Assembly (NCBI GenBank): GCA_951406725.2
Contig: OX597828.1
Span: 65,534,001-65,598,000 of the forward strand
DNA length: 64,000 nucleotides
From: Octopus vulgaris
Taxonomy: Eukaryota
Direction of reading: 5' to 3'
The notes under the pieces are model-generated. The model saw only the letters and a list, made by a program, of their open reading frames with translations, was not told the origin of the DNA and searched no databases. This document shows positions 2,478 through 61,280 of this stretch, piece by piece; position 1 is the first letter of the stretch, and every line of letters begins with the position of its first letter. Position numbers and translations under genes: made by a program.

Positions 2478-2528
2478 AGCTTCAACAGGACTAGAACTGT
2501 TTCATTCAGATATAATCTTCAGGAAGCT
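2478..2528 (-). ncRNA. Type I hammerhead ribozyme in the left pLTR
   Basis: Minus strand reads AGCUUC-CUGAAGA-uuauaucugaau-GAAA-CAG uucuaguc CUG-UU-GAAGCU: intact core, 6-bp stem I, GUU triplet. Confidence 0.8.
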
Positions 2529-3176
2529 GGCTGTCAAAATAAGTTCTGGTATTTATGCATTTAGGCAGATTTAATAGAGTGGTGGTGGGGGGCGTTTTTG
2601 GGGTAGGTTGGTATTTAAGAGATAAACAGGACACAAGCTATTGTTCTTAGGGGAGTGGTCAAAAGGCCAGAGTGTTTTTTGAAATGAGAAGAATCAGTGA
2701 GAAAATAAATAAATGAATAAATAGAATAAATGAATAGAAACAGATATATGGGATGGGATTTTAGGTAAATTAGAAGACAATTGCTTTTTGGTGGTCAAGA
2801 AGAGGTAGGCGGTTTGTTATTGTTAGGTGGAGGGAATAAATGGATAAATATACATGAAAAAACATAAAATAAATATACATACAAACACGCATACATACAC
2901 ATGCGAATATACATATGTATACATACATACGCACATATATATATACATACATACACATACATACACATACACATAAACATACACACATATATATATATAT
3001 ATATATATATATATTATATACATATACATATACGTACGTGCACCTACATACACACACACACACGCACATATATATACACATATACATATATATACACACA
3101 CACACACACACACACACACACATATATATATATACACATATATATATATATATACAAATACACATAAGTATACATA

Positions 3177-3311
3177 TGCATTTCTGAGAGCTTGGAGATC
3201 TTATTCGCCAAAAGCCCTCTCCTCAACAAGATCTCGGAACACTCCCCAAACTGTATGCACAAAATCTATGCAAACTACAAAAATTACAGACCCACCCGGC
3301 CACCCGATTGA
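3177..3311 (+). pseudogene. C-terminal fragment of a PLE GIY-YIG endonuclease
   Basis: CISESLEILFAKSPLLNKISEHSPNCMHKIYANYKNYRPTRPPD*, matching the PLE C-terminal motif CLxEKLxIL...LLNKRSE..xCxH. Confidence 0.8.
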
Positions 3312-4810
3312 CGACACCCTACCCACAAAACCCATCACCCCCCCACCCCCGCCCCCACCACACCACCTTTCCTTCATCACCCCAATTACCTTCTCTCCTA
3401 AGACTATATACATATATATATATGTATACATATGTATATATGCACATATATGTATATATGTGCATATATATGTATGTGTGCATATGTATATGTACATGCG
3501 TATGTCTATGCGTATATATGTGTGTTTGTATGTATGTGTATGTATATGTATACGTGTGTATATATATATATATATATATATATATATATGTATATGTATA
3601 TATGTATATGTATATATATATATATATATATATATATACATATGTTTGTATGTGTGTGTATGTATTTATTTATGTATGTATGTGTGTACATGTGTATATA
3701 TTTATATGTATGTATATGCATATGTATATGTTTATGTATTTATATATGTGTGCATATATGTGTATTTATATTTTTATATGTGTGTATGTATGTATATGTG
3801 TATATGGGTATATATTTATGGATGTATGTATATATATATATATATATATATAATGGGCATGTAGATTTATGTATGGGTATATATATATGTGTATATATGT
3901 AGATATGTATGTGTATGTAAGTGTATGTATGTGTATGTATGTGCATGTATGTATGTGTGTATGTATGTATATGCATGTGTGTATTTATATATGCATATAT
4001 GTATTTATATGCGTATATATGCTTATATATGCGTATATATATTTATATACACATAGGTTTTATATGTGCATGTGTGTTTATATATGCGTGTATATATTTA
4101 TGTGTGTGTTTGTTTGTACATACGTATTTATATGTATGTGTTTATATATGCATAATTATGTATATGTTTATATGTACGTAGGTATATTTATGTATGTATA
4201 CTTATATGTATTTGTATGTGTATATATATATATATATGTATATATATATATATATATATGTATATATGTGTGTATATATGTATATATATGTGCGTGTGTG
4301 TGTGTATGTAGGTGCACGTATGTATATGTATATGTATATGTATATAATATATATATATATATGTGTGTATGTTTATGTGTATGTGTATGTATGTGTATGT
4401 ATGTATATATATATGTGCGTATGTATGTATACATATGTATATTCGCATGTGTATGTATGTATATTTATTTTATATGTTTTTTCATGTATATTTATCCATT
4501 TATTCCCTCCACCTAACAATAACAAACTGCCTACCTCTTCTTGACCACCAAAAAGCAATTGTCTTCTAATTTACCTAAAATCCCATCCTATATATCTGTT
4601 TCTATTCATTTATTCTATTTATTCATTTATTTATTTTCTCACTGATTCTTCTAATTTCAAAAGACACTCTGGCCTTTTGACCACTCCCCTAAGAACAATA
4701 GCTTGTGTCCTGTTTATCTCTTAAATACCAACCTACCCCAAAAACGTCCCCCACCACCACTCTATTAAATCTGCCTAAATGCATAAATACCAGAACTTAT
4801 TTTGACAGCC

Positions 4811-4862
4811 AGCTTCCTGAAGATTTCATCTGAATGAAACAGTTCTAGTCCTGTAGAAAGCT
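4811..4862 (+). ncRNA. Type I hammerhead ribozyme in the right pLTR
   Basis: AGCUUC-CUGAAGA-uUUCaucuGAAu-GAAA-CAG uucuaguc CUG-UA-GAAAGCU: intact core, GUA triplet. Confidence 0.8.
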
Positions 4863-4945
4863 CCTTCTATAAAATAAATATATATATATATATATATATA
4901 TATATATATATATATATATATATATATATATATATATATATATAT

Positions 4946-5200
4946 AAAGGGAGAATTCACGTAAAAAAACAAAAGACGAAGACAGGTGGTGTACAAAACA
5001 AACAAATGTATTAGTATAACGCTACGCTCGGGAATTGAATAAGTCTTTTACGTTTCGAGCCTACGCTCTTCTACAGAAAGAAAAAAGGAGAGAAACAAGG
5101 AAAGAAAAAAAATGTGTGCAGTGGCGACCGATCTATAATGGCGACTGTCGGACAGAAGGGTCACAACAGGAAAGTTTAGAAAGTAGAAAAATAATAGTAA
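4946..5200 (-). mobile_element. PLE pLTR-like fragment with a minimal hammerhead (5045-5080)
   Basis: Minus strand CUUU-CUGUAGA-A-GAGC guag GCUC-GAAA-CG-UA-AAAG; abuts (TA)n; same module recurs at 15295. Confidence 0.65.
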
Positions 5201-5504
5201 TAATAATAATAATAGTTCTACGTAAAGTTCAAAGGTTGCAGACGTTGTGGTGTATTGCAAGGATTTTCACCAAAAGTAGAGTCCATATATATATTTATAT
5301 ATTCCCCTCTATGATTAGCCCCTTGTGGGTAGTAAAGAAATATATATATATATATATATATCTTTGTGTGTGTATGTATGTATGTATGTATGTAGATATA
5401 TATATATATATATATATATATATATATATATATATATATATATATATATATATATATACAAACGCACGCACACACACACACACACACATATATATATATA
5501 TATA

Positions 5505-58745: not shown

Positions 58746-58841
58746 TCACACATACGTACATATATATATATATATATATATATATATATATATATATATA
58801 TATATATATATAGTATGTATATATATATATATATATATATA

Positions 58842-60130
58842 CGAGGGGCGTTCAATAAGTAATACCTCTGACCCACTTGCCGTTGATTGATCTAGCTGAG
58901 ATTTTGCATGTGTAATTATTTATATCTCTATAGATTAAGTGGCAAATTACAGCTCCGAACGAATAGTGGTTTCTGATTTACATGTGTTTGAAATGAGTCA
59001 AGTGGGAAATGGAGCCTGTTGAGTGTCGAGAAATGATCCGGTTTTTGTATTTGAAATGACGCACACCACAGGAGACTTTTGATGAAATGAAAATAACTTA
59101 TGGTGATGATGCCCCATCATATGACCTTGTAAAACGCTGGCATCGTGAATTCAAACATGGTCGGAACTCTGTGGAAACAGCTCCCAGATCTGGTCGCACC
59201 CCTTCTACCATTGATGAGGCATCTGTCCGTCAAGTTGAGGCTGCCATTTTGGAAGATGGACGCATAACTATTCGCCAAATAGCCCATGAGGTCAAGATTA
59301 GTACCGGGTCTGTGGAAACTATCATTCACGACCATTTGCATATGCAAAAGGTGTCTGCCAGAGGGATTCCCAGGTTGCTCACGCTTTTCCTGAAGCAAGA
59401 ACGCGTCGAGTGCTCGAGGATGAATTTAGGGATGTGCCAAGAAGATGAGTCAAAAGTTTTCAAAAGACTGATTACACAGGATGAGACCTGGGTCCTTCAC
59501 CATGATCCAGAGACCAAAGCCCAGTCAATGCAGTGGAAGCACCATGACTCACCTCCTCCAAAGAAGGCAAGGGTGCAGCCCTCCGCTGGCAAGGTCATGC
59601 TCACAGTCTTCTGGGACCAGGACGGAGTAGTGATGACAGATTTCCTGGCAAAGGGTACCACAATTACAGGAGCCTATTATGCTTCACTTTTGAGGAAATT
59701 AAGAGAAGCTATCAAAACCAAGAGGCGGGGCAAGATCAGCAAAGGCATCCTCCTGCAGGACAACGCTCCGGTTCACAACTCGCTTGTCGCCAGATCAGAA
59801 GCACAGGCGTGCGGCTATGAACACTTCCCCCATCCCCCTACTCTCCTGACCTTGCACCCTCTGATTTTCACCTCTTCCCAGCCATGAAGTTGTTTTTGAA
59901 AGGAAAGCGTTTCCCAGATGATGCAGCCTTGATTTCTGAAGTCACGTCGTGGTTGGAGGACCAAGCTGGGGTCTTCTATGAAAACGGTATCCAGAGCTGT
60001 ATCAAACGATGGGAGAAATGCGTAACTCTGGGTGGTTCCTATGCTGAAAAAGACTAATACCTGTGCCAAGTTTCGTTGCTCTACTGCTATGGGAAGTGGG
60101 TCAGGGGCATTACTTATTGAACGCCCCTCG
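58842..60130 (+). mobile_element. Full-length mariner transposon (1289 bp) inserted in (TA)n
   Basis: TIRs CGAGGGGCGTTCAATAAGTAAT...GACCCACTT and its reverse complement; TA on both sides. Confidence 0.95.
59009..60057 (+). pseudogene. Mariner DD34D transposase pseudogene
   Basis: ATG at 59009, in-frame TGA at 59057, motifs TQDETW and QDNAPVH, 1-nt frameshift at HPPYSPDLAPSDF (~59830), ends GSYAEKD*. Confidence 0.92.
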
Positions 60131-60379
60131 TATATATATATATATATATATATATATATATATATATATATATATATATATATATATATATATATATATA
60201 TATATATATACAGTGTACATTTAAACACATGAGAGGTATCCATCATAGGATTCCTTTCATGCTACTAGAAGGAACAGTTAAAATCCAAACCACTATTAGG
60301 GATAAAAACTCGAAGGGAATGAAAAATAACATCATTTACCATCTATCTCCTGGACCATAGGTTTCTGACATTTTTTAGC

Positions 60380-60665
60380 AAATAGAATAATTTGCTAGGC
60401 GAAGTCTTCATGATATGAGATCTCTCTAACAAAATCTAAGGGGACTATTTGAGCTTAGTAAAAATGGTTGCTCTCCTAGCCTGTCTGCCGAGGAAAAATT
60501 TCTTATAGATCGACAAGATATCATAAAACATAGAGTAGAACACTCTAAATAAGTGATCAATATAGAAATAAAAGTAGACACGAATGTAATTGATAATCTT
60601 CCTCTGAATCCTGTGAAGCAGTCTCTTGCATCAGCACCATCGGTAGCAGAAAAAAATAAAGAAGA
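60380..60665 (+). mobile_element. RTE-like LINE internal remnant
   Basis: DRQDIIKHRVEH...VIDNLPLNPVKQSLASAPSVAE resembles the RTE EN-RT linker. Confidence 0.5.
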
Positions 60666-60689
60666 AAGAGTCTGTGACAAGGGTCCAGA

Positions 60690-60852
60690 GCACCTTCACT
60701 TTGGAGGACTTTCATAGGTCGTGGAGCACTATAAACAAGTGCATTGAAGTCAGGGGCCCTACTATTAAAGAAATTGGGGTTTTGTACTTCTTTGAAATTA
60801 ATAAATGTCGTTCCTGAAAGAAACCTAAAAACTTATGGGAGGTACCTTGTGT
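60690..60852 (+). mobile_element. Mariner 3' end
   Basis: NKCIEVRG terminus and TIR-like AAAAACTTATGGGAGGTACCTTGTGTA. Confidence 0.5.
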
Positions 60853-61158
60853 ATGTGTGTGTGTGAGAGAGAGAGACTCTGTGTGTGTGTGTGTGTGTGT
60901 GTGTGTGTGTGTGTGTGTGTGTGTGTGTGTGTAAATTGACTGAAGTAATGAGTTATATACATTTATTATATGTATATGCATTTATGATATCCATACATAT
61001 ATATATATTTAAATTTATATTTATATATATATTTATATATATATATATATATATATATATATATTTAAATTTATATTTATATATTTATTTATATATATAT
61101 ATATATATATATATATATATATATATATATAGTAAACAAAAATGAAGGAGTAGTTTAT

Positions 61159-61280
61159 AATATCACTACACATATTTCAATAGTGTGGTTTAATTCAAAT
61201 ACGAGTCCATTACATAATTTATTCGGTAGCATTACGTAAATTCAATTTGTTACCCACCAGCAATTTCTTCTGGTGATATT
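61159..61280 (-). ncRNA. Hammerhead-like motif with a long stem-II insertion
   Basis: AAUAUCAC-CAGAAGA-AAU...AUU-GAAA-UAUGUG-UA-GUGAUAUU; perfect 8-bp stem I; U4A core variant. Confidence 0.55.

Follow-up and report, generated by a model that had tools for sequence, protein, structure and literature searches.

Hammerhead motifs at the TA-flanked ends of short octopus insertions probably mark truncated PLEs, including a family with a fixed A3-U8 core pair

In a 64-kb window of the Octopus vulgaris genome (the whole stretch of DNA that was analysed), we found seven short insertions with hammerhead-shaped motifs at their TA-flanked ends. The insertions are probably the 5'-truncated 3' ends (pseudo-LTRs) of five lineages of Penelope-like retroelements (PLEs). 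One lineage, family E, carries an A3-U8 pair that is fixed in its core and is followed by a splice-donor-like site; this pair likely keeps a predicted dimer hammerhead intact and may also form a start codon. PLE parentage, and cleavage by the hammerheads, are suggested by the likeness of these insertions to published elements.

All nine hammerhead-shaped motifs of the original prediction are present, no more than a few bases from where they had been placed, but they are not independent: they reduce to seven insertions of five lineages, because each of the pairs 2478/4811 and 48158/48227 represents the two inverted arms of one insertion. Nor are their stems unrelated in sequence, as had been proposed, since A and B are inverted arms, the two G motifs form one palindrome, and the motifs at 5045, 15295 and 48933 (C, D and H) are related through a common stem II and downstream blocks. 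The proposed association with TA microsatellites was borne out. A run of (TA)6 or longer lies at most 120 nt downstream of eight of the nine motifs and of six of the seven insertions, against 7.2% of positions (p about 9e-7); in the exception, D, the TA run lies directly at the 5' side. TA runs in the window are also adjoined by mariner ends and SINE tails, which speaks against TA adjacency as a mark of PLEs.

Three of the seven insertions (A/B, E and G) consist of inverted 5'-truncated arms with a tail of 59-70 nt on one arm only. In A/B, arm A (2391..3176, minus strand) is an inverted 5'-truncated copy that ends in (TA)n, with a hammerhead at 2528-2478 (core CUGAAGA 2522-2516, predicted cut after 2484) and a 70-nt tail (2461-2391) present on this arm only. 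Arm B (3177..4878, plus strand) is the longer copy, with a microsatellite-rich body and a (TA)34 end; its hammerhead at 4811-4862 has the core CUGAAGA (4817-4823) followed by U.U and a 3-bp stem II, and an acceptor-like pyrimidine tract with CAG lies 2 nt 5' of stem I. The arms are 97% alike over 430 nt and 91% over 722 nt, both cores are canonical, and the U.U with which stem II opens in both is a published active hammerhead variant (PMC3088659). In E, the minus arm (35189..35340) ends in (TA)25, and the plus arm (35353..35419) holds the final 8 nt of the shared end and a 59-nt tail (35361-35419) and ends in (TA)16; in other copies this tail is found downstream of the minus-arm end, and the inversion is supported by the opposite-strand joints 35188-35361/35362/35372 and 35216-35353 in run contigs. 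Element G (48125..48367, assigned to neither strand) is a head-to-head palindrome (48125-48297; arms 93% alike over 178 nt) with TA runs on both sides, a 70-nt tail (48298-48367) confined to the plus arm, and a tail motif in common with A. GTAAGT sites close to G belong to the reverse strand of the opposite arm and were discarded as donors. The G motifs, at 48195-48158(-) and 48227-48264(+), have the core CCGACUU in both arms (U4C, G8U, A9U; core starts 48191(-) and 48231(+)), and in the predicted fold U8/U9 extend stem II across G12/A13, suggesting that G is likely a dead ribozyme.

An inverted truncated copy with a one-sided tail is the signature described for PLEs in passages of PMC8557442, and the one-sided tail has been explained by two RT start sites (PMC11167929). 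Published PLEs already show head-to-head truncated arms, a one-sided tail, a 3' (TA)n, a palindromic stem III and an extra base after A9. By analogy with published PLE work, a GIY-YIG nuclease would nick (TA)n on both strands, reverse transcription would begin at two internal RNA sites slightly downstream of the hammerhead, and early termination would then leave two short head-to-head copies, one carrying the extra tail. The hammerhead would get copied because it lies 25-110 nt away from the RT start sites; the stems III, short and palindromic, pair from one copy to another, so that a dimer, and perhaps the protein of the element, would be required for cleavage. This anatomy supports the proposal of PLE-type minimal hammerheads in TA targets. 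It does not single out non-autonomous families, as had been suggested, since the 5'-truncated ends of autonomous PLEs account for the same picture and either could have produced it. No RT or GIY-YIG remnant was found among 240 ORFs of the window (at least 55 aa, past a complexity filter), which also holds no full-length PLE parent; for a 43-aa frame at 3180-3308, which by eye resembles the end of a GIY-YIG domain, no relative was found.

The remaining four insertions are single copies. Element C (4947..5300, minus strand, 5' limit approximate) has its 3' end at the (TA)34 common to B and its hammerhead at 5081-5044 (core CUGUAGA plus an extra A, A6U, core start 5076; stem III palindrome ACGU). 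Element H (48850..49066, plus strand, 5' limit approximate) ends in (TA)28 and has its hammerhead at 48933-48967 (core CCGACGA plus an extra A, U4C, core start 48937; stem III ACGU; U17). The third relative, D (15295..15385, plus strand), is decayed: it begins at stem II, lacks the core and has lost the cleavage triplet, U16.1 being changed to C. Element J (61132..61280, minus strand) ends in (TA)21, and its hammerhead-like motif at 61280-61159 has the core CAGAAGA (U4A, core start 61272), an 8-bp stem I and an 87-nt stem II region. Core changes in C, D, H and J are likely for the most part copy-level decay. The core departs from the canonical one at one position in C and at another in H, as expected of decay.

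Type I order (stem I - core - stem II - GAAA - stem III - UH - stem I) is kept in A, B, C, E, G+, H and J, the exceptions being G-, which reads GAAC, and the coreless D. Compared with CUGANGA(H), the core is canonical in A and B, carries the Watson-Crick 3-8 swap A3-U8 in E, and has one mismatch in C, H and J and three in G. Stem III pairs with itself at 4/4 positions in C, 6/6 in E, 4/4 in H, 8/8 in J (with G-U pairs), 8/9 in G+, 6/9 in G- and 12/16 in A and B. For A, B, C, G, H and J, a fold other than the hammerhead has the minimum energy, although the J fold used only 3 bp of stem II and is thus an unfair energy test.

The E hammerhead (35277-35243, minus strand) has the core AUGAAUA (35272-35266), a 2-bp stem II, a palindromic ACCGGU stem III and C17 at 35248, and its A3 and U8 are the Watson-Crick swap of the catalytic C3-G8 pair. 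We aligned contigs of two public runs to E (n=1385 in X3, n=1014 in X6), most of them 90-99% alike, with summed depths on either side of the core of about 180,000 and 29,000, respectively. None of the 31 core and stem positions showed an alternative letter at 5% or more, so that A3-U8 is a family trait, while two of the four loop II positions vary; the difference between core and stems (0/31 variable) and flanks (about 6/87) is not significant. The view that core variants are family traits rather than decay therefore holds for one variant, A3-U8, which was absent from the variants originally listed. On E, the raw-read runs X22 and X23 yielded no more than 12 and 7 reads, respectively. A metagenome scan returned one match to the E motif, judged a chance match, in bacterial-looking DNA, and a viral scan returned none of this type. 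For the 41-nt motif, the predicted minimum-energy dimer is a double hammerhead at -15.3 kcal/mol, and the monomer fold is predicted at +2.5; once 15 or 30 nt of flank are included, at least stem I is lost from the predicted dimer. The A3-U8 pair likely keeps the predicted dimer hammerhead of the motif intact. A full double-mutant scan of one hammerhead found positions 3 and 8 to be rescued only by a G-C swap (PMC9901934), which counts against a working A3-U8 pair.

The swap would have a second effect, as A3 would turn positions 3-5 into AUG while U8 restores the 3-8 pair. This AUG (35272-35270, minus strand) opens 17 codons that run up to a splice-donor-like site at 35219-35214 (minus strand); the fifth donor position is G in 97-98% of the depth of the X3 and X6 contigs, so the family reads GTAAGT. 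The putative mini-exon, on the minus strand, is MNSDSETGRYIKNYIKT. Such a donor is expected by chance at about 0.014 per 60 nt and such an open frame at about 0.21; three of the four variable sites of the mini-exon are third codon positions, two of them silent, which is not significant (p about 0.11). The AUG is not independent evidence, because A3 gives it automatically, U4 and G5 being fixed. Judging from the frame and the donor, the AUG may be the start codon of the element, with a putative intron behind it, and a start codon within the core may be what drove the A3 swap. A cut 25 nt past the AUG would part it from the remaining reading frame. We therefore put forward, tentatively and as rather doubtful, a high-copy PLE family with its start codon inside an active hammerhead core, where U8 would keep the pair, a short exon would lead into an intron, and dimer cleavage 25 nt past the AUG would change the RNA from a message into something different.

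It is quite possible, though not the reading we favour, that the origin is the same but the ribozymes are passengers: the donor element of E would be inactive, U8-A13 pairing would lock an inactive fold as U8/U9 would in G, A3 would be neutral, and the family would have spread from one master copy without cleavage. Hammerhead mutants of the anole PLE had no effect on insertion in vitro (PMC11167929), G moved despite three core changes in both arms, its U8/U9 extending stem II, and the A-U swap went unrescued in the mutagenesis scan (PMC9901934). One young master copy would also yield uniform cores without selection, in line with the similarity of most E contigs. However, drift is unlikely to have produced two transversions that restore exactly the 3-8 pair (for two random core changes the odds are about 1 in 165), and E's three stems (I, II, III) as well as its NUH are all intact, the variation falling in loop II.

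Motif density exceeded that of dinucleotide-shuffled DNA, as anticipated, at one core mismatch or fewer, but was near chance at two or three. With at most one core mismatch, the descriptor gave four matches (C, H, J and a false one in a CAG run at 37356, discarded) against a mean of 0.33 and a maximum of 1 in 12 local dinucleotide shuffles; a scored scan, with scoring devised after E had been seen, gave four matches at a score of at least 16 against 0.33 (maximum 2) in 30 shuffles. The descriptor alone gave five matches at two mismatches (shuffles 1.8, maximum 5) and seven at three (shuffles 2.3, maximum 4), and two or three mismatches are needed for it to recover E and G. Two other candidates were set aside: 47723(+), which scored 14.5, a value also reached by shuffled DNA, and gave a poor alignment with E, and the hammerhead-like 157(+), which scored 11.4 and lies on a SINE copy. 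The expected under-annotation was confirmed in Rfam, whose hammerhead families gave no match up to an E value of 5 in four targeted scans of regions holding B, C, E, G, H and J; among the best 150 of 410 rows of the whole-window scan, dominated by microsatellite-miRNA matches, there was no hammerhead.

These figures bear on whether G, J and D arose by chance as folds of AT-rich repeats, or belong to other elements, MITEs for example, with hammerheads only in A/B, C, H and E. We think this improbable: descriptors with two or three mismatches do match shuffled DNA at one third of the real rate, G is palindromic like a MITE and Rfam matches no hammerhead, but D is homologous to C, J combines its 8-bp stem I with one core mismatch and a score of 16.9, and G carries the one-sided tail and the tail motif common to A. 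A non-LTR retrozyme identity for the modules (tandem units of 150-450 nt, non-autonomous, hammerhead-cut into circular RNAs and reinserted), as the "retrozyme-like" label of the original prediction implied, is very improbable, for although the type I topology, the short modules, one joint of run X23 that goes back 70 nt and spans the E motif (9 reads, 2 starts) and a 2026 preprint (Li et al.) deriving retrozymes from PLE ends would agree with it, none of the seven insertions is a head-to-tail array, the 12 X3/X6 joint rows comprise eight opposite-strand joints and four skips with none going back (short contigs of limited power), and the motifs are of the minimal PLE type that Cervera 2020 (PMC7229834) set apart from retrozyme hammerheads.

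Truncated PLE ends, the reading we prefer, agree in most respects with known systems. Like the minimal hammerheads of metazoan PLEs (Cervera and de la Pena 2014, PMC4209133), the motifs have type I order, a 4-6 bp stem I and a palindromic stem III, with U17 allowed; the extra base, the opposite-strand pairs and the scattered truncated singles of that study recur here, the first as a base after A9 in C, D and H, where an extra A belongs to the published PLE consensus CUGANGAH. A family-level 3-8 swap is found in that set too (U3-A8 in Schistosoma, about 1300 hits), whereas A3-U8 occurs in none of the 56 representatives of its Fig. S3, a list without cephalopods; E further differs in lacking the extra base and in its stem II of just 2 bp, and J in its 87-nt stem II region. 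The TA target, the inverted 5'-truncated copy, the one-sided tail and an intron beginning near the pLTR end (putative in E) also appear in passages on Neptune and Naiad PLEs (Craig et al. 2021, PMC8557442), where the tails measure 30-40 nt instead of the 59-70 nt seen here. Six short motifs of A/B, C/D/H, E and G were absent from the octopus Naiad consensus sequences Naiad_Obim and Naiad_Ovul, whose 3' ends were also read by eye. As in green anole Poseidon PAc (Frangieh et al. 2024, PMC11167929), the putative ORF start of E lies inside the hammerhead, with a predicted cut about 25-26 nt past the start codon (in PAc the distance is 26 bp), and the tail would lie between two RT start sites; in PAc, however, C3 and G8 precede the start codon, whereas in E the AUG would be core positions 3-5 themselves, with a putative intron behind it. 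Non-LTR retrozymes (PMC7229834; Li et al. 2026 preprint) are likewise short, mobile, non-coding sequences with a type I hammerhead, but the window lacks their head-to-tail arrays, and the ribozymes here are minimal, not canonical, and known from DNA sequence.

In an animal genome rich in PLEs, such a hammerhead population is ordinary; what is new is an abundant family with a fixed A-U in place of C-G, by which the natural covariation of the 3-8 pair becomes complete, at family level, in an animal retroelement. Because A3-U8 escapes the standard descriptors (CUGANGA, UUGANAA) as well as Rfam, hammerheads are undercounted. PLE hammerheads are dispensable for insertion in vitro (PMC11167929), and a family in which start codon and core overlap would make it possible to test cleanly whether translation is controlled by cleavage and whether selection acts on activity. 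If the start codon does lie in the core, this would be, as far as we could find, the first family-wide A3-U8 hammerhead, and codon and catalytic constraints would be imposed on the same three bases.

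All nine hammerhead-shaped motifs of the original prediction are present in the window (9/9) and can be parsed as type I, with varying quality. The inverted arms A (core at 2522, minus strand) and B (core at 4817, plus strand) carry the canonical CUGAAGA, a stem I of 5-6 bp, a stem II opening with U.U and a stem III of 4 bp. Insertions C (core at 5076, minus) and H (core at 48937, plus) show A6U and U4C, respectively, each with an extra A and the stem III palindrome ACGU, while D (15295, plus), which starts only at stem II, no longer has the cleavage triplet. E (core at 35272, minus) reads AUGAAUA, J (core at 61272, minus) has U4A with a stem I of 8 bp and a stem II of 87 nt, and both arms of G share CCGACUU, indicating that this core was already in the donor. 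For the best matches an excess over shuffled sequence is seen: a descriptor allowing at most one core mismatch found four sites (C, H, J and one false), whereas 12 local shuffles averaged 0.33 and never exceeded 1. Relaxing it to two mismatches gave five sites against 1.8, and to three, seven against 2.3; at these near-chance rates, E and G are not above chance by the descriptor alone. A and B lie outside these counts because the stem conditions failed. A scored scan accepting any Watson-Crick 3-8 pair, devised once E was known and with a loop limit that left out A and B, gave four sites scoring at least 16 versus 0.33 in 30 shuffles. The motif population is real but ordinary.

The motifs, whose stems were described as unrelated in sequence, are not independent: A and B are inverted arms of one insertion (97% identical over 430 nt and 91% over 722 nt in two comparisons), the G pair sits in the two arms of a single palindrome, and C, D and H are homologous, reducing the nine to seven insertions of five lineages. 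Their TA adjacency was borne out, (TA)6+ lying within 120 nt downstream in six of the seven insertions versus 7.2% of positions (p about 9e-7). The original choice of motifs may have been biased towards TA neighborhoods, but three of the four strict-scan matches adjoin TA as well. The window, whose repeat landscape looks like that of octopus DNA, has a G+C content of 37% and abundant microsatellites, and its TA runs also adjoin other elements. A mariner-type element (58842-60130; 275-aa frame at 59060-59887(+), Pfam Transposase_1, E 2e-25) has matching terminal inverted repeats and long TA runs on both flanks; a MITE-like short element (49123-49380) has terminal inverted repeats and a TA run on either side; and a 250-bp SINE-like repeat, in which ARAGORN found no tRNA, occurs at 93-267 and 13-18 other places (14-19 copies), its minus-strand 3' end leading into TA or TAGA arrays. 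Because mariner ends and SINE tails also lie at TA, TA adjacency alone cannot identify the element type.

By definition, retrozymes, one suggested identity, form head-to-tail arrays and circular RNA (PMC7229834 and preprint 10.64898/2026.07.22.740005, both in part); such an array occurs in 0/7 insertions, and the population is likely not retrozymes. In A/B, E and G alike, the insertion is made up of two 5'-truncated copies of the same 3' end placed head-to-head, with both arms running into (TA)n and a tail of 59-70 nt on a single arm. This arrangement corresponds to the inverted copy, one-sided tail (30-40 bp) and (TA)n preference of the Penelope-like elements (PLEs) of Craig et al. (PMC8557442, in part), and Frangieh et al. 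attribute the PLE tail to two internal reverse transcriptase (RT) start sites (PMC11167929, in part). Among 13 joint rows on E, eight were opposite-strand, four were skips and one, in run X23 only, went back 70 nt; the opposite-strand joints show that, in other copies, 35361-35419 is found downstream of where the minus arm ends. PLE hammerheads as described by Cervera and de la Pena (PMC4209133, in part) have the core consensus CUGANGAH, an unpaired base before stem II, opposite-strand pairs at spacings of 100-700 bp, truncated copies scattered singly, dimers of low activity and a U3-A8 family. The extra A after A9 is accordingly the PLE norm, and both a stem II beginning with U.U and U4C are natural variants already in print (PMC3088659, in part). 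Evidence against PLE membership is that none of the 240 filtered ORFs of the window matched RT or GIY-YIG, and that a 43-aa frame (3180-3308(+)) where arm B is truncated on its 5' side, by eye like the last GIY-YIG helix, matched nothing in homology searches. PLE parentage is therefore inferred from structure, by which the motifs are likely ends of autonomous or non-autonomous PLEs in TA repeats.

Several smaller features accompany these ends. Splice-acceptor-like sequences (4800-4808(+) and 2531-2539(-)) stop 2 nt short of stem I in A/B, resembling the D. virilis Penelope intron that ends at helix I (PMC4209133, in part). The tails of A (2391-2461(-)) and G (48298-48367(+)) and a TA-adjacent end near 49406 (about 49440-49480(-)) have in common a small hairpin (TACTC ... 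GTATTGAGTA-like), which may be a signal for RT recognition shared by families that are otherwise unrelated; the last-named end (49406-49555(-)) bears GAAACGUA and no recognizable core. The changes in C and H fall at different sites of the canonical core, which would be compatible with decay. In C (5071-5095(-)), A6U yields a long pyrimidine tract plus UAG, acceptor-like, inside the core; D starts directly after an AG matching this site, a coincidence that may be due to chance.

For E (35189-35419, hammerhead at 35277-35243(-)), whose core has A3-U8 in place of C3-G8, four sequencing runs were aligned to 35177-35431 with a likeness threshold of 80% and differences listed from 5%; copies less alike or clipped lie outside the counts, which concern the matches listed, 194 loose-end rows apart. 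The contig runs, X3 and X6, come from two organisms and two studies and yielded 1385 and 1014 aligned records, respectively. Depth summed next to the core is not a copy number, but at about 180,000 and 29,000 (listed single pieces 30-94 and 5-26) it implies many copies, probably thousands. Across the core and stems (35243-35277 minus loop II), 0/31 positions carried another letter at 5% or more, while loop II varied at two of four (35260, 35261); A3-U8 is thus the family-wide state of E, not decay of the window copy. The flanks varied at about 6/87 positions, and the invariant motif is thus not significant by itself. Raw-read run X22 gave 12 reads (less than 90% alike, off the core) and X23 gave seven, six of them spanning an unchanged core; these numbers, far below expectation for a high-copy family abundant in X3/X6, could reflect filter removal of TA-bearing reads or another organism. 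Run X23 also holds, at one place, the E hammerhead repeated head-to-tail with a 70-nt unit (window 35217-35286; nine reads, two starts).

A3 occurs in 0/56 PLE hammerheads of Cervera Fig. S3 (PMC4209133, in part). In viral contigs, with a single stem II frame counted, complete hammerheads made up 118/127 returned loci for C3-G8 (about 2100 stretches estimated), 18/58 for U3-A8, 2/39 for G3-C8 and 0/4 for A3-U8. A natural type I hammerhead that looks complete and has G3-C8 as its core pair occurs on an IMG/VR contig (L069). We found no natural A3-U8 hammerhead in the literature, including the available portions of PMC11014351, PMC10085705, PMC13725137 and PMC6765202; Lunse 2017, the largest PLE variant survey, may include one. 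A 2026 octopus repeat annotation names active PLE families, and the word ribozyme is absent from the portion available (PMC13282606). The family-wide core swap has no match found in print, in an otherwise ordinary population of likely PLE ends.

C3-G8 is a Watson-Crick pair within the active hammerhead core (PMC3884650, in part), and A3-U8 keeps that pairing. For the 41-nt motif, the dimer fold predicted to have the lowest energy is a double hammerhead (-15.3 kcal/mol; monomer fold +2.5), which other predicted folds beat with longer flanks. According to Przybilski and Hammann 2007, all Watson-Crick 3-8 pairs are reportedly cleavage-competent in two ribozymes. In one type III hammerhead for which all double mutants were scanned, only the G-C swap gave rescue (PMC9901934, in part), and self-cleavage by the predicted E motif is uncertain. 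A family dead as a ribozyme yet uniform is a real rival, since G was mobilized despite a core with U8 and U9 paired into stem II, and hammerhead mutants of an anole PLE did not block insertion in vitro (PMC11167929, in part).

Through A3, core positions 3-5 of E automatically become AUG, and position -3 is an A. From there, 17 open codons extend to 35220; at that point the window has GTAAAT, whereas GTAAGT, the consensus splice donor, makes up 97-98% of family depth, and an in-frame stop falls inside the donor-like site; chance is about 0.014 per 60 nt for the donor and about 0.21 for the open frame. Three of the four variable sites in this stretch are at third codon positions, two silent, which is only suggestive of coding. 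The donor-like site could instead belong to a 5'-UTR intron, and neither a spliced read nor a downstream ORF was seen in the aligned runs and window. The candidate AUG lies 25 nt before the predicted cut, much as an anole PLE ORF begins within the hammerhead 26 bp ahead of its cut (PMC11167929, in part), and PLE introns beginning in the pseudo-LTR are on record (PMC8557442, in part). The proposed reading is that family E has its start codon in the hammerhead core, created by A3, and that U8 compensates by keeping the 3-8 pair.
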